Source: Chitinivibrionales bacterium
GTDB taxonomy: Bacteria > Fibrobacterota > Chitinivibrionia > Chitinivibrionales > WJKA01
Assembly: GCA_038247415.1 (NCBI GenBank)
Contig: JBBRUX010000004.1
Coordinates: 1 to 64,000 of the forward strand
DNA: 64,000 nt
Direction: 5' to 3'
The notes under the pieces are model-generated. The model saw nothing but the letters and a program-made list of their open reading frames with translations. It was not told the origin of the DNA and ran no database searches. The position numbers and the translations under genes were made by a program. Below, piece after piece: positions 21,637-33,464 of this stretch (positions are counted from its first letter, which is position 1; each line of letters opens with the position of its first letter).

Positions 21637-22599
21637 TCAAATCTTTACGCTTGCCAAACGATGAAGTATCCATGGGGTAAAATATGAAACTATTTTATTT
21701 GCTCCCGCTCTTTTTATACCCAAAAGGGTTTCTTCGATGACCGATTCTGCAAGCACCCCCGTCGAGACAGCCCACGTTAGCATAGCATACTCTCCAGACA
21801 CATTATACCCAATCACAGGAACCCTAACCCGTTGGGAGGCAATACTGATAATGTCGAGATATGCAAGCGCTGGCTTGACTATAACAGACGTTGCTCCTTG
21901 CGCAATATCAGCTTCTATTTCAGCCAGAGCTTCTATGCCATTAGCAGGATCCATCTGGTATGTTTTTCGATCCCCTGTTTGCGGTGCACAATCGGCGGCA
22001 TCCCGAAATGGGCCATAGTACGCCGAGGCAAATTTAGCAGCATACGACATAATAGGAATATGTGAATATCCAGAAGCATGAAGTGCATTTTTAATATACA
22101 ATACTCTGCCATCCATCATGTCGGACGGAGCAACAACATCTGCACCCGCCAAAGCATGACTCACGGCAATTTTTGCAAGCACTTCACAGGTTGCATCATT
22201 TTCTCCAACATGACAATGTCCATCGAGTGAATAGGAACACAGACACACATCGGTAATAACTATGAGCGTTGGAAAAGCGGCTTTAATGTGCGGGAGAGCC
22301 TGTGCAATAATACTCGAATTACTCCACGCTTGTTCGATTCCTTTTGAATGCGGAATCCCAAAAAGCAACACCGACATAAGACCTTTACTAACTAGATCTT
22401 TCAATTCAGGCAGCACTATATCTATGGATACCCTACATACACCCGGCATACTAGGTATAGCTACCTTTTGACCCTGCCCCTCAATCAAGAACACTGGCCA
22501 AATAAAATCAGATGCTGTAAGTACCGTTTCTCGGTGCTTGCTCCGGGTTGCTTCATCAACTCGCCGGTCTCGAAACCGGGCAAATAACTCATGCATCAT
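21637..22599 (-). CDS. hemB: Porphobilinogen synthase (ALA dehydratase), Zn type
   Basis: DVCLCSYSLDGHC, APSDMMDGRV, YAAKFASAYYGPFRDA, VKPALAYLD and YNVSGEY. Confidence 0.97.
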   Translation of the reverse strand: MMHELFARFRDRRVDEATRSKHRETVLTASDFIWPVFLIEGQGQKVAIPSMPGVCRVSIDIVLPELKDLVSKGLMSVLLFGIPHSKGIEQAWSNSSIIAQALPHIKAAFPTLIVITDVCLCSYSLDGHCHVGENDATCEVLAKIAVSHALAGADVVAPSDMMDGRVLYIKNALHASGYSHIPIMSYAAKFASAYYGPFRDAADCAPQTGDRKTYQMDPANGIEALAEIEADIAQGATSVIVKPALAYLDIISIASQRVRVPVIGYNVSGEYAMLTWAVSTGVLAESVIEETLLGIKRAGANKIVSYFTPWILHRLASVKI

Positions 22600-24565
22600 G
22601 CGCTCCTAAAGATATGTCATCCCCTACAGAAACGTGCCTATATGTTGACGCGTAGATAATTCTATTTGGATTCACCGTATGTTCAAGAAGTCGAGCATGC
22701 GTTGCTGGACCCATCGCATACACAAGCAGATGTGATGCCACGGATCCTTGCCAATTAATAAACGAATCCACGGTAGAAGGGGATGAAAAAAAGACAGATG
22801 AAAAACTAGTCATTTCGATTTTAGTTGGGCACTGAAGCTTTGTTGCATAAGCTCGTACCGTTACCACATTTTTTAATGTACTAATGCAATTATCCGATTT
22901 ATTTGAGCAAGGATACGCAACAGCCCATTCTGGATGCGATAGAATAAGTTCTGCACAGGATTGCGATGTGGGCTCTTGGGCACAATAGTCTGCAGTGTAC
23001 CCGTGTTCTGCAAGGGACGTGCCTGTTTGCGATCCAATAACAACAATCTTTTTTCCTGCACATGAATAGCGACTACAAAAATATCTGATAGCTTCTTTAC
23101 TCGTGAATAAAAGGGTAGTGCAATCCGAAAAATCAGAAACATTACACGGAAGCGAATGTGTTGCTATAAGAGGAATATGAATAATTTTTGCAAAAACTGT
23201 GCATGCAGTAGGATCTAATCCTGTATACAGGAGTCGGTCCATTGTCTGATAATGCTTTCCTACGTTACCCGCAATAATAAGTGCTGGTGAAGCAATGGAA
23301 CATTTGTCCAGTGCCCCTACCGTTGTTGACACATGACGTTCCTCTGGCAAACCTCCAGATTCAACAATAATAACGGGTTCAACAGGGGCATGCCCTTCCC
23401 CCATTAAATGCTCTTTAACAGAAGCGAGTTTGGTAGCACCCATATAATACACACAGGTATCGGTTCCAAGATGTGGAATAGTAGTGGTTGTACTATAATG
23501 AGCCGAGACAATCCCAAGGGATGCAGATATATTTCGTTGCGTTAAGGGAATTGCGGCCGAAGCAGCGCAGGTTTGAAAAGCCGATATCCCAGGAACTACT
23601 TCAACAACACAGTGGCGCATTCGCAAATAATCGAGTTCTTCGCCACCTCTGGAAAATAACAGAGGGTCTCCTCCTTTAAGCCGTACCGTTTTTTTACCGT
23701 TAAGTACTTCACGATACATCATTTCAGATATGCTATCTTGCACAGTAGAAGCTTTATCTTTTCGTTTACCTACATACACTTTGGAAGCAGCGTATCGATC
23801 TAAAAGGTCTTGTGTTAGTAAATCATCATAGAAAATGACATCTGCGTGAGCAAGGACACGATCTGCCTTAATAGTGAGCATTTCATAGGTACCGCACCCG
23901 CCCCCAACAAGCCATGCCATCCCGTAGTGAACTCGTGTATCGAGTGAGGAAAATAGCGCTTTTAGATCTGGTCTATCTGCTTTTGCCAAAATAGCAAGCA
24001 TACCTTGAAGTGGATGCGCAGCATACGGGAGAACCTCCGTAATCCGGGTCGCAAGCCCCAAACGTTTAAGGGCACATGTAGCAACCACAATTGCATCAAA
24101 ATCACCTCTGTCAACTTGAGCGAGCCTATCCTCTATGGTTCCCCGAATGCTTTTAAACGTAAGATCTGAACGAACTGCCGCAATTTCTGCCATGCGCGTT
24201 TTCGAACTTGTTCCAACACACGCTTTGGTAGGGAGCTCTGAAAGTTTTAATCCTTTAGGCGACACAAGAGAATCGGTAGCATCCAATGCCGTAGTGAGCG
24301 CAACAAGTGCTAAACCATCGTGCAGCGGAAAGGGAAGATCTTTTGCACTATGTATGGCGATATCTGCTCTATCTTCTAGCACAGCGGTATCGAGCGTATC
24401 AGTAAAGAAATCTGGTTTTTGTTCTTCGAGTAACGAAAGATCCTTATTAAGGTCGCCAAAAGAAGAGAGCGGAAGAATCTCGTACGCACTAGTACCAAGC
24501 TGAGTAATCACCTCTTGTACTTGCACCAGAGCAAGCGGTGAATTACGCGTGGCAATGCGTAGCAT
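22589..24565 (-). CDS. hemC: Fusion of a truncated hydroxymethylbilane synthase (HemC domains 1-2), uroporphyrinogen-III methyltransferase (CobA) and uroporphyrinogen-III synthase (HemD)
   Basis: IATRNSPLALVQ, HSAKD, GTSS and IRG (HemC); VRLKGGDP, RGGEE and VPGIS (CobA); LFTSKEAI, FSSPSTV and MGPAT (HemD). Confidence 0.9.
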   Translation of the reverse strand: MLRIATRNSPLALVQVQEVITQLGTSAYEILPLSSFGDLNKDLSLLEEQKPDFFTDTLDTAVLEDRADIAIHSAKDLPFPLHDGLALVALTTALDATDSLVSPKGLKLSELPTKACVGTSSKTRMAEIAAVRSDLTFKSIRGTIEDRLAQVDRGDFDAIVVATCALKRLGLATRITEVLPYAAHPLQGMLAILAKADRPDLKALFSSLDTRVHYGMAWLVGGGCGTYEMLTIKADRVLAHADVIFYDDLLTQDLLDRYAASKVYVGKRKDKASTVQDSISEMMYREVLNGKKTVRLKGGDPLLFSRGGEELDYLRMRHCVVEVVPGISAFQTCAASAAIPLTQRNISASLGIVSAHYSTTTTIPHLGTDTCVYYMGATKLASVKEHLMGEGHAPVEPVIIVESGGLPEERHVSTTVGALDKCSIASPALIIAGNVGKHYQTMDRLLYTGLDPTACTVFAKIIHIPLIATHSLPCNVSDFSDCTTLLFTSKEAIRYFCSRYSCAGKKIVVIGSQTGTSLAEHGYTADYCAQEPTSQSCAELILSHPEWAVAYPCSNKSDNCISTLKNVVTVRAYATKLQCPTKIEMTSFSSVFFSSPSTVDSFINWQGSVASHLLVYAMGPATHARLLEHTVNPNRIIYASTYRHVSVGDDISLGAHDA

Positions 24566-25463
24566 ACCTATTTCCCCGTATCATTGAAGCGCGATACGCA
24601 TTTATTTCTTCATCAATAAGTTCTTCTGCTCGTAACACCTCAAAACATCTGCATGCGAGATTCTGATTCATGCACTTTTCTACCTCATCGAGATCGTATA
24701 CATAATGAGGATACTCGGAAGCATTTTGAGTGTTGATGGTGCGGGGTACCGAAAGATCGATGCCGATACACCTCTGGACAGGGAAATCCCCCAGTGTAAA
24801 TAGAGCGGTTTCGAGCTTGAGCGCAGATACCACAACCTTTGACATTGCAAGAAATGAAAAAACATGCTCAAAGTCAACCACTGTGCACCCTGTAGTGTGT
24901 GCGATTTCATGGGCCTTAGATTCGGTTCGATTTGCAATAAAAACCGAGGTGTATCCACGTTTTTGTAAACCATCGCAAACATTACGCGTAATTGTATTCG
25001 CACCAAGAACAAGAATGATAGAATCCAAGGAAATAGCTTCTTTGCATGTTATAATATTGAGCGTTGCCGATGCATGGCTTACAGCCCCACGAGCAATTGC
25101 AGTTTGTGTCCGCACTCTTTTGCCAACACGTATTGCGTGCAGAAAAAGTTTATGCATTCCCCTATCAAGTTTACCCATTTCGCAAGCTTGTAAATATGCT
25201 CGTTTAATTTGACCAAGGATATGCCCTTCGCCAACCATTGCCGATTCGAGCCCCGCTGCTACCCGAAACAAATGAAGTACCGTTTCGCTTGTGGCAATTC
25301 CAACGCCCGTATAAAGTTCCACTCGATTGCATGTTTGAACATACACACTTCCTGGTGTGCGCAGGGGCAAAAGCTGCTGGATGCGCTCCTCCCGCATTGC
25401 CACAGAAACCGAAATGTCACTACCGAGAAAGGAGATCATTTTGTATAAATTCTGAAATAGCAT
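24543..25463 (-). CDS. hemA: Glutamyl-tRNA reductase, short form
   Basis: TCNRVELY, HLFRVAAGLESAMVGEGHILGQIK, IANRT and IDLSVPR. Confidence 0.92.
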   Translation of the reverse strand: MLFQNLYKMISFLGSDISVSVAMREERIQQLLPLRTPGSVYVQTCNRVELYTGVGIATSETVLHLFRVAAGLESAMVGEGHILGQIKRAYLQACEMGKLDRGMHKLFLHAIRVGKRVRTQTAIARGAVSHASATLNIITCKEAISLDSIILVLGANTITRNVCDGLQKRGYTSVFIANRTESKAHEIAHTTGCTVVDFEHVFSFLAMSKVVVSALKLETALFTLGDFPVQRCIGIDLSVPRTINTQNASEYPHYVYDLDEVEKCMNQNLACRCFEVLRAEELIDEEINAYRASMIRGNRYATHCHA

Positions 25464-25878
25464 TACGCCAGTGAACCGATTGCGATGGTTTGCATCCGTT
25501 TGACGTAACGGCTACTGCCATATCACCATGCAAAGAAAGAGCAGGAGAAATAAAATCACACGCTGCCGGATCATCTGCTACATTGACCAATGCACCTGCT
25601 GCACGCGCATCCTCACCAATGTGCCTGTTAAGTTCGCGGTCGTTGGTACACGCATACACCAAACGGGCTCCAACGAGAAACGTTGTAGTGTAGCTGCACT
25701 CATGCCACCTAACAGGCAATTCTTTAATGGGCGAACAAACCTGCGTTGCAAATACTTCTATCTCATTAGCAAACGTAACAAGATTGGTAAGTTTTTGCAA
25801 TGCAACAGCTCCCCCGCCTATAAATACAATCTTGCATCCCCTTACATTTATTGCAATTGGAAGAAACGATTGGTTCAT
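25420..25878 (-). CDS. sirC: Precorrin-2 dehydrogenase/sirohydrochlorin ferrochelatase (SirC/Met8/CysG N-terminal type)
   Basis: FLPIAINV...IGGGAVALQK and VNVADDPAACDFISPA; the ATG at 25878 overlaps the stop of the upstream reductase. Confidence 0.88.
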   Translation of the reverse strand: MNQSFLPIAINVRGCKIVFIGGGAVALQKLTNLVTFANEIEVFATQVCSPIKELPVRWHECSYTTTFLVGARLVYACTNDRELNRHIGEDARAAGALVNVADDPAACDFISPALSLHGDMAVAVTSNGCKPSQSVHWRNAISEFIQNDLLSR

Positions 25879-28800
25879 GAGCGCCCCGCTCCAGAAAACA
25901 TCGTTGAAAGCGAAACTTTTTTCATGGTTATGGCATTGGTAGGACATACCCGCAAACATTTACCACATCGTATACACTGATCACTATTAATCTTGATATA
26001 GGTACCAGCTTCATCCGTTAAAGCTTCGTGCGCACTCACGATATATCCGTCGGCGTCTTTAGAAACTGCCGAAACGCGAGATATACATTTACGAGGAGCA
26101 GCATCAATGCACCAATTGCAATGAATGCATAAGTCCTGATCTATTTCAAATGAATAATGACAAAAATAGCAGCGCGATGCATTATCCACAGACTCTTTAT
26201 CAGTAAACCCAAGATCAACCTCGGTAGTGGGAAGCTCTGCTCGTATTTCAAGAGGAGAAACAGCCATGGATTGTTGTCCGAGCACATCATGATCACGCAC
26301 ACGGCCTGTATTACTATCGGGCATGGCTTCTACCGAAACAACAGCATGCATAGCCATAGTCCCCATAAGCGATTCGTCGACTCGGTACGCGCATACTTTA
26401 CCTTGTGCAACTGCTCTAATAACGTTGCCCGACCCGTACATAAAATCGCCGGTAACAAAAATTTTAGGATCTGAGGTTCTAAAAGAAGCAGTAGCCACGC
26501 ATTCTGGTGGCAAAATCGGCTCTTGAGTTTGACCAATAGCCACAATGCAATAATCAGCCTTAATAACAAATTCACTACCTGCAATTTCTTGCAGTTTCCC
26601 TTTGGTGCCAAGAGGGCCACTCGTTAGTACCGACCTCCGAAATTCTACACCAGTCAATTTTCCATTCGTAATTAGTGGGGCAACCGGAGCTGCAAAACTA
26701 TGAATATTTATATTTTCCTTTGTCATTTCTTCAAATTCTTCGGAGGTTGCAGACATATGCGCTTCACCGCGCCTATACACAATAGTAATATGCCCCTTTT
26801 CCCCCATAATTCGCCGTGCTGCACGCGCACACGATCGTGCACAATCAACTGCAGTAAAGCCACCCCCTATAATTACAACATCTCCTTGAAGAGAAGTTAT
26901 TTCTTGTGTGTTATACCCTCTCATGAAAGCTAACCCATTAATAACAATATCGGCAGAAATCCCCTTAAAATCAAGTTCCACAGGTATAGCAGTCCCCGTG
27001 GCAACAATTATTGAATCGTGTTCTTTTTTGAGTTCGAGAAGTCGCGTTTGCGTAATATTTTCTTTGGTAAGAAGCTTAATGCCATGACGGATAATAAAAT
27101 CTGTCTCGCGCGCAACAATCTCACGGGGTAAACGAAAATCGGGGATGCCATACCACATCATCCCACCAGCAACTTCTTCGCGTTCATACAGTGTTACTGA
27201 GTGTCCCAAACGAAAAAGCTCGCGTGCAGAAGCGAGGCCCGCTGGCCCTGCACCAATAATTCCAATCGACTTACCCGTAGCAGCGCGAAAAGGTTTGTAG
27301 AGCGGTGGTTTAGGCGCCCGGTCCGCAGCAGAGCGTTTGAGATGACAAATAGAAACAGGCCCCAAAATATTGGTCCATTGATGACGGCACTTGTTTTCGC
27401 ACGGACGGGTGCATACCCTGCCAAGAACACCAGGGAACACATTGCATTCGAGATTGATAGCATGCGCAGAAACAAAATCGCCCTGCATGATTTTTTCGAT
27501 GTATCCTGGGATATCTGTTTTTGCCGGACAGCCCTCTTGACAAGGGATATCACGCGCTATCGATTTTTTTTTTACTGCATCCAAAAGCGATGGTACCACA
27601 GGCTGAGGATATTCAGACAAGGCTTGTGCCTGGGCATATGTTCCTACATGTTTAATTGCAGCCTTAAACGGATCCAGTCCACAGCGAGCAACTGTTGCAA
27701 CGAGAGTTTCCTTGGGTAATCTTTGCGAAACAAACAGATCCAGTAGAATCCTTGTAATCGAAATACAGTCGGCCACGGTATAGGTTCCAAGTTCTCTACC
27801 AAAAGACCATTGCGTCCCACCAAGGGTAATCAAATAACCTTCCACCGAACCATTTTCTAGTCGTATGCGAGCTCCCCGAAAACCGATATCGGCAATGCGA
27901 TAGGGCGAACAAGAATTAGGACACCCGGTAATATTAATAATTGCGTAATCTCTAACAGAAGCATAGGCAGCATCGTGAACAACAGGCCCTAAAAGATCGA
28001 AAAAGGTGCGTGTAGAAGCAACCGCCTTCGGACAATACGTAGTACCCACGCATGCAACCATATCGGTTAAGCCATAGGCCCCATCTGTTGCCAATCCAAG
28101 ACTAGAAACCGCATTACGCGCTTGCGTTACGTTACCAGGAAGGATTCCGTGCACCTCTAAATTCTGGCGATTTGTTGTATATAATGTATGATCTGCATAC
28201 CTGTCTGCAATATCTGCAAGGCCTCCCAATTGTTCTGAGGTAAGCTCTCCCTTGGGAATCAACACCTTGAGAATAGTCTCATTAAGTGTTTGCGTATGAG
28301 AATCAACTAATGGTCGAATATCAATGGAAGTGAGCGGAGCTTGAGCGGGATCAAAATTAATTTCACCTGTATCAACGTGTTCAAGGGTTAGGTTTTTAAG
28401 AACACCTTCACGACACACATCGATGCCTAAACGGTCAACCACAAATTTAAGACGAGAATGGGCACGACTATATCGATCTCCGGTATCACGAAACAAAAGT
28501 GCTATAGCTCGAACAACGGCAATAGCTTTTTCTGCAGGAACAAAGGTAAAAAGACTCGAGGCAACAAATGCCTTCCAGCCCATACCACCCCCAATGAATA
28601 CCTTAAACCCTGGCACAATTTTACCATTAACGGTTTTAGACGTTGCAACCATGCCCACACAATTCATACCAGGTTGCGCACAAGAAATATCGCATCCCGA
28701 CCATACCACCTTAAATTTACGCGGGAGATTATCAAGATCGCGACTATTAGTCAAGAGTTTCATAGCCTCACGTGCATAGGGTCTAACATCAAAGGATTTA

Positions 28801-29222
28801 TGCGGACAATCTTCTGCAAGCGGGCATGCAGTCATTGTTCTGGTTACATCACCGCATCCATGGAAAGAAGAGAGATTCGCGGTGCGTACTTCCCGCAAGA
28901 CAATGGGAAGGCTTGTAAGCGTAAGTCGATGATATTGAAGAGCTTGACGTGTAGTTACCGAGACGACATTATGAGCATAATGCCGAGAAATAGAGGCACA
29001 TGCCCTCGCCTGGTCTGCCGTAAAGACGCCACCAGGAAGCACGACGCGCATCATGTAATCGCCGGTTTGACGCGATCCATAAATGCCATACCATTTTGCA
29101 ATGAGGCCTTCTTCTTTACTCATCGAATTCTTTTTAGCAATTTCATCAAAGTCAAGCGTAAGGCCGGCATCTTTAATTTCTTCTTCTTCACTCCTTTTAC
29201 GAAACGTCACCTGGCGTTGCAT
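25875..29222 (-). CDS. Siroheme sulfite (or nitrite) reductase fused to a GltD/DsrL-like FAD-NAD(P)H oxidoreductase and a 2x[4Fe-4S] ferredoxin
   Basis: aa 1-525: TTRQ, LPRKFK, CVGTTYC...GCPNSC. From aa ~560: PCQEGCP...[30 protein letters not shown]-terminus: [24 protein letters not shown]. Confidence 0.9.
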
Positions 29223-29236
29223 ACTTCTCCACGAGG

Positions 29237-31027
29237 TTAAATTGAAAAATCGGGTATTATTTCTTTATGTTTAAGCACTTCATAAATTTGATTTACTGCA
29301 TCTAAAACAGAAACGTTTGCGTTTAAGGCAACATGCGATACTAATGACGCTGCATCAAAATCGCCCGCCGTAACCACAAGGATCTCATGGGGTTGATTAA
29401 GTCGCTCAAGTAAAGCAATATCCCCACCATCGAGATGAGCTCGTGCCGTTATAAAAATATGGCCACTTCCCGTGAGAACGCGAGCCAGCTCTCCAAGAGA
29501 AATAAGATCTTCATCTTTATTGCTCTCTGAATTATTCGAGCCTGCCGACAATCCTTTTTCAAAGAATGAATATCCCAAATAATAGGCTAAATATTTATTG
29601 GCAAAAAGATTAGCTTCCAAAGCATGCCCTATATTTCGGCACAGTTGGGCATTACTGCCCGTAAGGAGAATAAATTTTGCCTGATGTCCAAACCGCTCGT
29701 AACGATCCGCAACACCAACTCCCCCACCTTCCCAAACAACTTCTCGACGTTTTACATGCTCATCGAGGACTGAATGATCGTTTTTTAATGATTCAAGCAC
29801 AATACCGCATCCTGCAATTTCATAATTGGCCACAATAACAAACCGCCCGGTTGAGGGGTTTGAAAGAGCGGTATCAAAAGCAACAGGCTTAATCGTTTCA
29901 AAAATACACTCTGCAACATCATGCCGATCAAGCTGCTGCTTACTTCCTGTATCGCTTGTACCAGTTGCATCGATCATAGTTCTAATTTCAACAAGTTCAA
30001 CAGCCACGCGCGTGGCTCCTATTTTCAGTTTATACCGACGATCCTTTACCAAAGGAATATGCATCATCCAAAAAACCATACCGCGAAATCGTTGCGATAC
30101 CATAGGTGGAACCTGATCTGCCCGACATAAAAGCTCACCTGGCTTGATATACAATTCTTCGGTAAGCGTAACGCCAAACGCATTTCCGGCAACAGCCGAG
30201 GTTAAACAAGGACGATTAAACGCTTCTATCGATTTTATGGATGCAGATTTACGACTCGGATAAAATACCACCTTATCCCCTACCGACACCGTTCCCGATT
30301 CGATGGTACCTGCAACAATTCTTCGCTCGTCATCCATTTCTGTAAATTTATAAATATCCTGAACAGGAAAACGAAGAGTCTCTTTTGACCGAGATGGTGG
30401 AATAACAAGCTCATCTAGGTATTCTAAAACTGTTTTACCCGTATGCCACGATGCTCGCTCTGCAATATTCTCCCCATCGCGGGCGCATATCGGAATAAAA
30501 TCGATAGGCTTAACCTGCAAAGGCGCTAAAAATGCTGTATACTCTTTTTTGATGCGCTCAAAAACAGCCATATCATACCCGACAAGATCCATTTTATTGA
30601 CAAGAACGATTACCTGTTTGAGTCCAAGCATCGAAAGCAAAAAACCATGCCTGCGAGAATTTTCGCGAACACCTTCATGAGCATCTATCACAAGTAAAGC
30701 AGCATCGGAGCGGGATGCCCCCGTAACCATATTCTTTAAAAATTCAATATGGCCAGGAGCATCAATAAGGATATAATCCCTCTTTGCCGTTTTGAAAAAA
30801 CAACGCGCGATATCAATCGTTATACCTTGCGACTGCTCGTCTTTTAAAGCATCTAGCAAAAAGGCATACTCAAAAGGACGGGCATTGCGCGCGCACGTTG
30901 CCTTGACTTGTTCAAGCTTGCCCTCGGGAAGGGAACCGGTATCGGCCAAAAGCCTGCCAATAACGGTGCTTTTGCCGTGATCCACATGGCCTGCGATAAC
31001 AATATTCATCTGCTCGCGATTACTCAT
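29237..31027 (-). CDS. cysN: Sulfate adenylyltransferase subunit 1 (CysN) with a degenerate APS-kinase-like C-terminal domain
   Basis: [27 protein letters not shown] and RFPVQDIY; the C-terminal CysC-like region has no P-loop. Confidence 0.93.
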
Positions 31028-31039
31028 AAAATTCCTTAC

Positions 31040-31807
31040 TTAAAAAGAAAGACCTGTCAAAAGGCGGAACCGATACGGATCAGATGCAGGGGTTCCACCA
31101 AATTGAAAGCCTGCGGTAAACCACATGTTCCCAGAAATACCCGATACAGTGGGGCCTATATAATCTTTGGCCACAGCTTCTACACCACCGTTTTCGGTAT
31201 CAAACTCAGTGGTATTATTAATTTCCAATCCTACACTAAAAACCGGAACGATTGCAAATGACAACCCAATGTCAAGTCCTACTTCATGTTTTACACCAGG
31301 CGCAAATACTATTTCATACACAGGATCAACTGAAATATCAAACCGTGAACCGATAGACTTCGACAAAACAGCCTTAACCTCAAATGCATTAGGATTAGTT
31401 GATACCATTGGTCGGGCATACTCCAGATACAAAAGCGGATTTATAAACCACGATGTACCATCCCCAAATCGATAACGATAACGGAATTGAACTTCATCCC
31501 ACACAAGCGGACTATTTTCTACTTGCGAAAATATCTGATACACTGCTATGTCGGAATGTGAAGTGAGCCCATGTTCCAATTCTATTTTATATTCCCATGA
31601 ATCAAGCCCATCAGAAATGGTGGCGGTGTAGTAAAATTCAAGTTCACTCTGCTCAGGAGATAATGTTCCATATTGATACGTCCAGGCAAAATTGCGCCAA
31701 TCTGCAGAAACCCCAAAAAAAAGGCCAGCAAACATAATTGATGCACCAACATTTGCTGCCAAACCCTTACCGAATGCGAAACGAGATACTAATTTTCTAT
31801 TTTTCAT
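31040..31807 (-). CDS. Predicted outer-membrane beta-barrel protein (putative porin, possibly DUF6662-like)
   Basis: Signal peptide, amphipathic strands (WEYKIELEHGL, FRYRYRF, PLLYLEY) and C-terminal FRLLTGLSF ending in Phe. Confidence 0.7.
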   Translation of the reverse strand: MKNRKLVSRFAFGKGLAANVGASIMFAGLFFGVSADWRNFAWTYQYGTLSPEQSELEFYYTATISDGLDSWEYKIELEHGLTSHSDIAVYQIFSQVENSPLVWDEVQFRYRYRFGDGTSWFINPLLYLEYARPMVSTNPNAFEVKAVLSKSIGSRFDISVDPVYEIVFAPGVKHEVGLDIGLSFAIVPVFSVGLEINNTTEFDTENGGVEAVAKDYIGPTVSGISGNMWFTAGFQFGGTPASDPYRFRLLTGLSF

Positions 31808-31832: not shown

Positions 31833-32714
31833 CTACATGTACCCTTCTTTGCGGAGCGTTTCTAGGCCTCCGCCATCTTCTTTGTCTTGGGCTCTACCAG
31901 ATCGCTCTGCGATGTTGGCAAGTTTACCCGATTTGAGTTCCTCAATAATATCAGCGGGATTTTTCGCTACCGATTCGATTGGGTTTGTACACGGCCAGCA
32001 GCCAAGAGACCGGTAGCGCTTCCCTTTGCCCTCATCATAATAGAGCGACACCATAGGGATTTTTTCTTGTTCTATATATTCCCAAATAGCAAGCTCTGTC
32101 CAATCGAGCAGCGGATGCACTCGAACGTGAGTTCCCGGTGCAAAATCTGTCTTGTAATAATTCCAGACTTCGGGAGGTTGATCCCCCACGTTCCATTCGT
32201 TTTGACGATCTCGCGGGGAAAAATAACGCTCCTTAGAACGACTCCCTTCTTCATCGGCACGGGCTCCAACGATAACGCCCGTATACGGTTCTTTATTCGT
32301 ATCAAGCACATATTTTTTGTGCGCATGATCCATACGATAGCGCGGCCAATCACCCGAAAGGGTATGCTTGAGAGCTTCACTTTTAAGAGCTTTACAGCAG
32401 CTGAGCCGATCGATATTTTTATCGGGGAATGTCTGCTTATCGGCGATTGCTTTGGCATTTTCTCCATATACCATATTTAGGTTCCACTCCAGAGCCAGAT
32501 CGTCTCGATAGGTAATCATTTTTGGAATTTTAAAATGAGTATCAATATGCACAAGAGGGAATGGCACATGCCCAAAAAAGGCTTTACGAGCCAACCAGAG
32601 CAATACAGTGCTATCTTTTCCGATAGACCAGAGCATGCAGAGACTTTTAAACTCCCGATACGCTTCTCTTAAAATAAATACGCTTTTTGCTTCCAATACC
32701 CCAAGTGATTCCAT
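31833..32714 (-). CDS. cysD: Sulfate adenylyltransferase subunit 2 (CysD)
   Basis: [39 protein letters not shown] and C-terminal LRKEGYM. Confidence 0.96.
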
Positions 32715-32723
32715 ACGATATCC

Positions 32724-33464
32724 TTACTGTATGCTATGAGTTTTGTTTGGTCTGTTATGCAAACCACATTCTTTATGTTCAGGCAATTCCCACCACCAAC
32801 GCCCGAGCCTAACATCATCCATTGGCCCACTTGCACGAGTGCACGGTTGGCAACCGATACTACGAAAACCTTTTTCATACAACTTAGACATTGGTAACAC
32901 ATGGTTTTTGGTATAGTCCATTGTTTGCGATTCTGTCCAATTACACAGAGGACTTATGCGATACACAGAATGAGCTTCATCCCATTCCACACAAGAAAGC
33001 CCGCTGCGTGTCTGCGACTGCTCTGCGCGTAGGCCTACAATCCAGGCATCGACGGTGCTTACTATTTTTTGTAAAGGTCGAGTTTTTCGAACAGCGCAGC
33101 AGGCCTTTCGAGCATCTATACTCCTATAAAAAGAATTGGGTCCTGGAGTCGACACAAGGTTTGCCACCTCTTTCGCATCAGGGACACACACTTCGTAAGC
33201 AATATTCCACAAATCAACCGATTGTTGCCATACGTCATAGGTTTCTTCAAAATGCCGACCGGTATCAAGCGTGAAAATGCGAGCCTTTGGATTTATGCCT
33301 ATAAGCATTTGCGTTAGAACCTGGTCTTCGGCGCTAAAGCTTGATGCAAGAGCGATCCTGCCTACTGTAAAGGTAGAAAGTGCCCACGCAACAACCGCTT
33401 CTGCAGTCAGGTTTACCGTCTGCCTCTGATACTCTTCCAAAAATGTTTGTGAGAATTCCGCCAC
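32724..33464 (-). CDS. cysH: APS reductase (FeS-type CysH)
   Basis: LDTGR, the CC pair (ACCAVRK), SIGCQPCT, GRWWWE and KECGLH. Confidence 0.93.
   Translation of the reverse strand: MAEFSQTFLEEYQRQTVNLTAEAVVAWALSTFTVGRIALASSFSAEDQVLTQMLIGINPKARIFTLDTGRHFEETYDVWQQSVDLWNIAYEVCVPDAKEVANLVSTPGPNSFYRSIDARKACCAVRKTRPLQKIVSTVDAWIVGLRAEQSQTRSGLSCVEWDEAHSVYRISPLCNWTESQTMDYTKNHVLPMSKLYEKGFRSIGCQPCTRASGPMDDVRLGRWWWELPEHKECGLHNRPNKTHSIQ

Follow-up and report, generated by a model that had tools for sequence, protein, structure and literature searches.

Many sulfate-assimilating anaerobic or facultative bacteria lack CysJ, and annotation gives the sulfite reductase (SiR) of these organisms no electron source. 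By record titles, the groups concerned include Verrucomicrobiota, Planctomycetota, Myxococcota, Spirochaetota, Bacteroidota, Fibrobacterota and Desulfuromonadales. How such an enzyme could be fed with electrons is the question raised by a gene in the window, the whole 64,000-nucleotide (nt) stretch of contig JBBRUX010000004.1 of a Chitinivibrionales bacterium that was analysed. This gene, on the minus strand at 25875..29222, joins a siroheme reductase to a GltD/NfnB-like flavoprotein and a ferredoxin, and its product is probably a self-sufficient NADPH-dependent assimilatory sulfite reductase (aSir) with a built-in iron-sulfur wire, as judged from sequence and structural modelling. The cofactor content, NADPH as the donor, sulfite as the substrate and the order of the relay are predictions. 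Publications given by PMC number are cited for those excerpts of their text that were available.

Architecture of the fused gene

The gene and its parts are the following (aa, amino acids of the product; NiR, nitrite reductase).

25875..29222, minus strand: SiR, GltD/NfnB-like flavoprotein and ferredoxin fused in one gene, 1115 aa, protein P0001 (Pfam, AlphaFold2 model)
27648..29222, minus strand: two-repeat NirA/SirA-type siroheme reductase module, aa 1-525 (Pfam, PDB sequence matches, Foldseek)
28680..28826, minus strand: repeat-1 motif C133-X5-C139-X37-C177-X3-C181, aa 133-181 (alignment)
28707..28718, minus strand: putative substrate site K169-x-K171 ('PRKFK'), aa 169-172 (invariance, NiR alignment)
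27909..28052, minus strand: canonical cluster motif of repeat 2, C391, C397, C434, C438 (CX5C-X36-CX3C; alignment)
27558..27647, minus strand: tether between the halves, aa 526-555, low confidence (AlphaFold2 confidence, junction alignment)
27315..27551, minus strand: Fer4_20 iron-sulfur domain, aa 558-636 (Pfam 2e-16)
26358..27275, minus strand: FAD domain with embedded NADPH domain, aa 650-955 (Pfam, alignment, PDB sequence matches)
26160..26225, minus strand: putative displaced N-terminal segment of the GltD-like Fe-S domain, aa 1000-1021, ending in R-C1018-x-x-C1021 (NfnB alignment)
25923..26147, minus strand: 2x[4Fe-4S] ferredoxin domain, aa 1026-1100 (Pfam Fer4/Fer4_7)

A reading of the letters made earlier without database searches (the sequence-only reading) had described a single 1115-aa open reading frame (ORF) of three modules, namely a two-repeat siroheme reductase, Fer4_20 with FAD/NAD(P)H domains, and a ferredoxin. 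The ORF is present on the minus strand and translates without internal stop, the plus-strand frame across the same positions being full of stops; each of the modules was matched in Pfam, and the motifs that had been quoted were all found in the translation and are invariant in an alignment of 36 fused homologues, to which every statement of invariance below refers. The start is credible because a GGAG lies 7 nt upstream of it and homologues align from residue 1; the stop of the preceding gene, cysN, lies 12 nt before it. The AlphaFold2 model, computed from the 36-row alignment, has a mean predicted local distance difference test (pLDDT) of 86.5 and a predicted TM-score of 0.78, and is weak only at aa 541-550 of the tether (pLDDT 54; below 50 at 542-544). 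In forms of the enzyme encoded by two genes, the SiR stop and the flavoprotein start both fall within the tether region, aa 526-555.

The siroheme half and its predicted substrate

The amino-terminal half matches NIR_SIR (4.8e-40) and NIR_SIR_ferr (4.8e-28) in two stretches each over aa ~40-500 (Pfam), and its internal repeat is detected by BLASTP self-alignment (E 5e-8). Its best fold match is Mycobacterium tuberculosis NirA (1zj8_A, TM(target) 0.82, Foldseek), a protein that, in spite of its name, is known as a sulfite reductase. Among PDB sequences, tobacco NiR (3b0h, 3.9e-50) and M. tuberculosis NirA (1zj8, 4.3e-43) come first; the SiRs of E. coli and of maize follow at a wide distance (about 1e-20). 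The four cysteines of the repeat-2 motif are invariant (36/36) and align to the cluster cysteines of plant NiR.

Lysines 169 and 171 are likewise invariant, and the aligned place of tobacco NiR reads K-W-N ('prkwn'); PDB entries titled 'N226K mutant' mark the NiR residue aligned with K171. SiRs presumably carry Lys at the K171 equivalent (K215/K217 in E. coli). For a wider survey of position 171, the 150 best-ranking representatives of 50%-identity clusters were taken from a search that gave 4686 matches at E <= 0.001. Of these representatives, 142 span both cluster-motif regions, and K is found in 130 of the 142 and N in 12. The 12 include the two examined fusions with a NirB-type flavoprotein (P0314, P0332); the TusA- and rhodanese-fused NirA-like forms examined have K. 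The pair K-x-K would make a sulfite-type anion site, as opposed to the K-x-N of the nitrite type; the title 'N226K mutant' supports a role of this residue in separating SiR from NiR. The survey also showed NirA-like reductases with other partners, namely sulfur-carrier domains (TusA in P0251, P0258 and P0265 and rhodanese in P0273), and joined in P0314 and P0332 to a NirB-type flavoprotein with [2Fe-2S] domains.

Three lines of evidence favour sulfite: the operon of the gene, its neighbours in other genomes and the anion site. An NAD(P)H-dependent assimilatory nitrite reductase, or an enzyme reducing both anions with nitrite as the physiological one, is improbable in view of the invariance of K169-x-K171 where NiR has K-x-N, the rarity of N171 in the survey (12/142, both NirB-type fusions examined among them), informative neighbourhoods that all concern sulfur or siroheme and in no case nitrate, and a best fold match that is known as a sulfite reductase. 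What speaks for nitrite is that, by sequence, no solved protein is closer to aa 24-500 than plant nitrite reductases, that the NCBIfam label of this half is 'NirA family', that a NirB-type gene lies about 2 kb upstream in one split locus (L022), and that Fsr, a fused siroheme enzyme, favours nitrite in vitro (PMC10229431).

Operon and genome of the gene

The neighbouring genes are as follows (APS, adenosine 5'-phosphosulfate; PAPS, 3'-phosphoadenosine 5'-phosphosulfate).

32724..33464, minus strand: cysH, APS/PAPS reductase family (NF002537, 227 bits, above cutoff 154)
31833..32714, minus strand: cysD (NF003587, 337 bits, above cutoff 195)
31040..31807, minus strand: 255-aa ORF between cysD and cysN, no family match
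29237..31027, minus strand: cysN, sulfate adenylyltransferase large subunit (TIGR02034, 340 bits, above cutoff 336)
25420..25878, minus strand: sirC-like precorrin-2 dehydrogenase, CysG N-terminal domain (NAD_binding_7 9e-26; TIGR01470, 85 bits, above cutoff 62)
21637..25463, minus strand: hemA, hemC-cobA(SUMT)-hemD fusion and hemB, tetrapyrrole/siroheme precursor genes (Pfam; TIGR01035 match below cutoff)
22589..24565, minus strand: HemC, CobA/SUMT-type TP_methylase and HemD in one gene

All of these genes lie tightly on one strand in the order cysH-cysD-(unknown)-cysN-fusion-sirC-hemA-hemC/cobA/hemD-hemB, with the sirC ATG overlapping the stop of the fusion (ATGA), and the locus is an operon for sulfate activation, sulfite reduction and siroheme supply. 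The hemC-cobA-hemD gene would channel tetrapyrrole synthesis toward precorrin-2 and siroheme. CysH has a CC...CxxC pattern, presumably typical of APS reductases, and sulfite may be made directly from APS. CysN carries a C-terminal extension of ~170 aa and aligns to positions 22-538 of 632 of a bifunctional CysN/APS-kinase model; no APS_kinase Pfam match was found in the extension. The 255-aa ORF has a hydrophobic N-terminus and Phe as its last residue; it gave no Pfam or NCBIfam match and no tblastn counterpart in any of 27 related loci, and may, as a guess, be an outer-membrane protein.

The sequence-only reading had noted that the operon holds no cysJ or ferredoxin gene, and neither was found. 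In the genome as a whole (3.84 Mb, 96% complete) no match to the CysJ-type FAD_binding_1 domain was obtained; in the control for this search, the domain was matched in 3 of 14 genomes, those of E. coli, B. subtilis and Synechococcus. A PF01077 search returned the fusion and AsrC as the only NIR_SIR proteins, and no dsrAB. Two more Fer4_20 proteins, paralogues of GltD/NfnB type, are encoded elsewhere in the genome. The second siroheme enzyme belongs to an asrA-asrB-asrC operon (contig C8, locus L031, 3387-6991) that directly follows genes for a formate/nitrite-family transporter and a hemerythrin-domain protein and has a rubrerythrin gene downstream, a locus that suggests an anaerobic lifestyle.

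It is conceivable that sulfite is reduced for detoxification or energy metabolism, in the manner of Fsr or Asr, and not for cysteine synthesis: the carriers are apparently mostly anaerobes, the genome has asrABC beside the formate/nitrite-family transporter, and fused donor-SiR enzymes such as Fsr serve detoxification (PMC10229431). The position of the gene between cysDN/cysH and the siroheme genes, the cysK or cysH genes that adjoin it in other phyla, and the separate asrABC, which already covers a dissimilatory or detoxifying role, make this alternative as improbable as the nitrite one.

The donor half

In the Fer4_20 domain, whose match covers profile positions 29-108 of 113 and misses the first ~28 positions, Cys 561, 565, 604, 608 and 612 are invariant and C626 is nearly so. 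A counterpart of the missing beginning is found after the flavin domain: residues 21-42 of Thermotoga maritima NfnB, which end in the distal-cluster cysteines numbered C39 and C42 (PMC7596348), align to aa 1000-1021, weakly if taken alone (E 1.7e+03) and with the Cys pair matching. R1017-C1018-x-x-C1021 is invariant, the segment is kept in split forms, and two large subunits of bifurcating enzymes (9bov_A, 8oh5_C) carry an RCxxC segment at the same position. The 'RCYFC' of the fusion is, on this alignment, a circularly displaced piece of the GltD-like Fe-S domain; together with the five invariant Fer4_20 cysteines, C1018 and C1021 make seven, and the displaced pair would tie the distal cluster to the ferredoxin domain that starts 11 residues later. 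All eight cysteines of that domain (C1032, C1035, C1038, C1046; C1083, C1086, C1089, C1093) are invariant.

The flavin domain is matched by Pyr_redox_2 at aa 653-941 (Pfam 8.7e-24), with invariant G657/G659/G662 (GxGxxG), G786-G788 (GGGxxA) and Y816-R817-R818 (YRR). In NfnB the YRR motif holds the 2'-phosphate of NADP(H), and it is the mark of NADP(H) preference in NfnB and DsrL-2 (PMC7596348).

The closest solved relative of aa 560-1094 is the Caldicellulosiruptor saccharolyticus Nfn-ABC large subunit (9bov_A, E 2.9e-64), followed by Sporomusa StnC (8oh5_C, E 1.4e-62), the T. sibiricus NfnABC large subunit (9n5u_A, E 3.2e-61), NfnB (4ylf_B, E 1.2e-49), GltD (7mfm_I, 2vdc_G, 6s6s_G; E about 1e-37) and dihydropyrimidine dehydrogenase (DPD; 1gt8_A, E 1.2e-27). 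StnC/NfnABC large subunits also take Foldseek ranks 1-4, and the ESM Atlas matches, all with a score of 0.85, are generic FAD/Fe-S oxidoreductase clusters. Pfam found in the fusion neither the CysJ diflavin domains (flavodoxin, FAD_binding_1, NAD_binding_1) nor the N-terminal FrhB-like F420H2-oxidase domain of Fsr type.

These relatives raise the prospect of a bifurcating or ferredoxin-coupled module, one that also reduces a low-potential ferredoxin or needs reduced ferredoxin as a second donor, since the closest of them are the large subunits of the bifurcating StnABC and NfnABC, and NfnB (PMC7483475). The chances of this are slighter still than those of the two alternatives above: no NfnA/PyrK-, NuoE/F- or NuoG-like partner is fused to the protein or encoded in the operon, glutamate synthase and dihydropyrimidine dehydrogenase use the same GltD-like module simply to pass electrons from NADPH to clusters (PMC8097209), and the reduction of sulfite by NADPH is downhill (E0' -116 mV; PMC10229431).

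Docking model and proposed electron path

For the electron path, of which an AlphaFold model had been proposed as a check, the contact between ferredoxin and SiR was modelled. A complex of SiR aa 1-530 with aa 990-1115, in which four 4Fe-4S clusters rode along, scored 0.64 on the model's own confidence (0.63-0.65 in three runs) against 0.00 for the best of three controls, and so passes a mark, roughly valid here, that is reached by 116 of 157 solved complexes and by 2 of 215 mismatched pairs. From run to run, 75% or more of the contacts agree, and the partner has a pLDDT of at least 66. Confident contacts join ferredoxin residues 1032-1037 and 1091-1095 to SiR residues 398-401, 434-436 and 450-460, a docking of cluster loop on cluster loop in which the ferredoxin Cys loops of one cluster face the loops with C397, C434 and C438. 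Memorised complexes seem an unlikely source of this result because the solved SiR-ferredoxin complexes use a plant [2Fe-2S] ferredoxin of another fold. The model supports a wire that would run from NADPH over FAD, two GltD-type clusters and two ferredoxin clusters to the siroheme-coupled cluster.

Along this path, NADPH would reduce the FAD of the GltD/NfnB-like module, and electrons would leave one by one over the module's pair of [4Fe-4S] clusters, the distal of which would be completed by the RCxxC segment displaced to a place after the flavin domain. They would next cross both clusters of the C-terminal ferredoxin domain, set against the catalytic-cluster loops. Their destination would be the [4Fe-4S] centre coupled to siroheme in the second SiR repeat; there, sulfite would take up six electrons to give sulfide for cysteine synthesis.

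Fused and split forms in other genomes

Of 7995 candidates scored in a search for homologues of near-equal length, 1277 proteins reached E <= 0.001. Those listed, 120 in number, have 1079-1243 aa and are 45-55% identical, and 119 of them are full-length fusions with at least 96% query cover and the Pfam domains of both halves; the exception, P0057, has 45% cover in its best local alignment. The absence of fused homologues elsewhere, which the sequence-only reading had named as a refutation, is thereby contradicted by at least 119 full-length examples. Their source names are generic ('FAD-dependent oxidoreductase') and some are misnamed 'formate dehydrogenase major subunit'; a JGI name reads 'sulfite reductase beta subunit-like hemoprotein/NADPH-dependent glutamate synthase beta subunit-like'. 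For three of the homologues (P0057, P0062 and P0109; 1155-1243 aa) the precomputed Pfam domains include PF13241, the NAD-binding domain of siroheme synthase, and their chain would then have the sirC function as well. With the C-terminal half alone as query, 7999 candidates gave 3547 proteins; most of the 120 listed stand alone, with ~590 aa, and are similar to the same degree (47-55% identical), and none of them is named DsrL.

In a scan of species-representative genomes, 27 loci were found, by record titles in Opitutaceae and other Verrucomicrobiota, Bacteroidota, Polyangia/'Deltaproteobacteria', Desulfuromonadales, Spirochaetia, Fibrobacterota and Candidatus Haliotispira prima. Four were left out of the count of forms, three with only the flavoprotein at a contig end (L004, L013, L018) and one in which the flavoprotein end is followed by a distant NIR_SIR gene, 26% identical (L008). 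The halves are encoded by adjacent genes, SiR then flavoprotein and often overlapping, in 21 of the 23 loci that have both, and fused in two, one of Fibrobacterota (L001) and one of Desulfuromonadaceae (L003). The fusion is thus neither rare nor singular, and the two-gene form is the commoner one in reference genomes (21/23 loci). Within the order of the present genome, the module is fused in this genome and in G008, and split in two genomes of the same family (G001, G002). Two carrier genomes (G041, G042) gave no dsrA match above cutoff.

The neighbours of these loci touch on sulfur as well. By tblastn with the genes of the window, cysH and/or cysDN are present in 8 of the 27 loci and sirC/cobA in three. 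Pfam annotation of the neighbourhoods of five loci showed a cysK-like PALP gene immediately upstream in three (L019, L010, L022), with metK-ahcY further upstream in the two that are of Verrucomicrobiota (L019, L010), and cysH lies directly downstream in L009.

A FastTree phylogeny of the flavoprotein half was built from 81 rows, comprising 36 fused and 39 stand-alone proteins (40 sampled, P0200 dropped for length), four split loci and, as outgroup, the two paralogues of the genome. It requires at least seven changes between the fused and split states, where 'split' was set for database proteins by length alone and may include a few fragments of fused genes. One clade of 25 rows is entirely fused, and the protein of the window stands on a long branch inside a mostly split clade of 20 rows. 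Its terminal branch measures 0.9 changes per column against a median of 0.2, and its flavoprotein half is, by this tree, an unusually diverged copy within the clade.

The sequence-only reading had also pointed to a stop or frameshift near aa 530-560 as fatal, and none occurs in contigs of three sequencing runs, which cross the junction (aa 520-560, nt 27542-27662) free of indels; two of the runs are possibly the source of this DNA and the third is from another sample of the same study. A fourth run, from a different study, matches exactly over 27635-27785, and runs X4-X7 contain only small shares of the sampled words, X4 matching three short pieces. An assembly or sequencing artefact joining two adjacent genes, for which relatives of the same family with separate, overlapping halves might be invoked, is highly improbable given these runs, the many fused homologues from unrelated assemblies and a tether that aligns with the N-terminus of split flavoproteins.

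A second cluster motif in the first repeat

The repeat-1 motif, CX5C-X37-CX3C, has canonical spacing when compared with the CX5C-X36-CX3C of repeat 2, and both are present in 36/36 fused homologues; the repeat-1 motif was also found in all five split-form SiRs examined, and plant NiR has no Cys at its positions. Among the 142 cluster representatives, the repeat-1 positions hold four cysteines in 78, three in 30, two in 13 and one or none in 21, and the repeat-2 motif is complete in 140. Published accounts, in the excerpts available, have the repeat-1 cluster site lost in aSirs, and the literature search returned no paper with a title or abstract start on a second motif in these enzymes.

A second catalytic site in repeat 1 is unlikely because the pseudo-symmetric site lacks the K-x-K pair, the residues aligned with it in the self-alignment not being basic. 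Repeat 1 may hold a further [4Fe-4S] cluster, the sixth of the protein, or a siroheme centre of structural function like that of DsrA. BLASTP self-alignment offsets the first Cys pair (C133 against C397); the near-equal motif spacing, X37 versus X36, suggests that this offset is an alignment artefact. The repeat-1 cysteines as the electron entry point were set aside, the docking model putting the ferredoxin on the repeat-2 loops. C123, also invariant in the fused homologues, may match the Cys of the Tyr-Cys cross-link in M. tuberculosis NirA. A second motif in the N-terminal half bears on the evolution of SiR from a duplicated ancestor.

Weight of the evidence

Several observations weigh against an NADPH-dependent aSir as the identity of the fusion. 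The nearest solved sequence relatives of the N-terminal half are plant nitrite reductases. The specific NCBIfam matches all score below their cutoffs: 'NirA family protein' over aa 9-524 with 228 bits (cutoff 523) and PRK12771, 'NAD(P)-binding protein', over aa 553-1101 with 338 bits (cutoff 516). With neither score reaching its cutoff, the fusion belongs to no curated NCBIfam equivalog. In the NfnB alignment, the invariant K629 stands in the place of the Glu that ligates the proximal cluster, so that the ligation of this cluster in the fusion is uncertain; the nearly invariant C626 and H627 are candidate replacements. The docking score is the model's own confidence, obtained with an own alignment and riding ligands that depart from the calibration. 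Finally, the module is present in only four of 41 genomes of the family and order, the present one included; 17 of the 27 loci have no cys or siroheme match by tblastn; and none of the genes annotated around the fused locus L003 is a sulfur gene.

On the other side, the operon, the neighbours elsewhere, repeated fusion and fission, the K-x-K pair, the YRR motif and the docking all favour a CysJ-free sulfite reductase fed by its own flavoprotein. The NAD(P)H:sulfite reductase of the sequence-only reading is in this way strengthened on six counts, its function and substrate staying predictions.

The suggestion that the fusion had not been characterised before agrees with a full-text literature search, in which neither the fusion nor the two-gene pair was found described; subscription journals or supplements may hold one. 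The enzyme is not described in the excerpts of PMC3448663, PMC8097209, PMC7596348, PMC10839748 and PMC13188885, and a 2021 review of GltD-like modules names, in the part available, only glutamate synthase, DPD, Nfn/SudA and AegA/YgfT (PMC8097209). The fusion is thus widespread and visible in databases, and without description in the searchable literature. A broader proposal, put forward tentatively and on the doubtful side, is that the GltD/NfnB-type flavoprotein with its 8Fe ferredoxin, fused or adjacent, constitutes a third major NADPH route to assimilatory sulfite reduction, and that the SiR half is a 'two-centre' monomeric aSir whose N-terminal half binds a [4Fe-4S] cluster and possibly a second, structural siroheme. 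If the fusion acts as an NADPH-dependent aSir, reconstructions that label the step 'ferredoxin-dependent' or 'incomplete' would need revision, and one gene would be enough for NADPH-driven sulfite reduction, siroheme given.

Comparison with known systems

The fold, the repeats of aa 1-525 and the repeat-2 cluster motif are shared with NirA/SirA (M. tuberculosis 1zj8) and plant nitrite reductase, which differ in receiving electrons from free ferredoxin; plant NiR, in addition, lacks the repeat-1 cysteines and reads K-x-N where the fusion reads K-x-K. NirB-type NAD(P)H nitrite reductase also combines a pyridine-nucleotide flavoprotein and a siroheme domain in one chain, but its flavoprotein (Pyr_redox_2, Rubredoxin_C and BFD [2Fe-2S]) is of another class and N-terminal, and it has one SiR half-pair.

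In its predicted reaction and role, namely NADPH, six electrons, a siroheme-[4Fe-4S] hemoprotein and cysteine synthesis, the fusion resembles CysJI of E. coli and Salmonella. There, however, the donor is a separate diflavin (FMN/FAD) CysJ subunit in an oligomer, whereas the donor of the fusion is a GltD/NfnB-like FAD protein with four predicted [4Fe-4S] clusters in the same chain; the hemoprotein is of NirA/SirA type and matches CysI only at about 1e-20.

Fsr likewise has a donor module fused to a siroheme sulfite reductase with a [4Fe-4S] relay between them, and differs in its F420H2 donor, the N-terminal position of the donor module and a single-half SiR that dimerises (PMC10229431). The similarity is weak, 7.9e-11 for the match of the SiR domain to 7np8_A.

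The donor half had been assigned the architecture of DsrL, and the domain order bears this out: by its published description, DsrL consists of an Fe-S domain, FAD with embedded NAD(P), a linker of ~100 aa and a C-terminal 2x[4Fe-4S] ferredoxin; DsrL-2 also carries YRR, and DsrL serves a siroheme sulfite reductase too (PMC7596348). The linker of the fusion has ~70 aa (956-1025) and includes the displaced RCxxC. DsrL differs in being a separate protein of dissimilatory dsrAB organisms and in having the first two ligand positions at the N-terminus and not after the flavin domain (PMC7596348). Because the genome is without dsrAB, the fusion is not a DsrL by the first criterion of that description and the comparison is only an analogy; its closest solved relatives are the StnC/NfnABC large subunits.

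These subunits (8oh5_C, 9bov_A, 9n5u_A) share the NADPH-binding GltD-like module and the RCxxC after the flavin domain that leads to further cluster motifs. They continue into a NuoG/formate-dehydrogenase-like domain and act with NuoE/F-like partners in bifurcation (PMC7483475), whereas in the fusion the module closes with an 8Fe ferredoxin and shares its chain with a siroheme reductase. DPD follows the same plan: its single chain combines a catalytic module with an NADPH/FAD module of GltD type, and an 8Fe ferredoxin at the C-terminus completes a four-cluster wire. In DPD the catalytic module is an FMN domain resembling dihydroorotate dehydrogenase, and the wire runs across the homodimer (PMC8097209).

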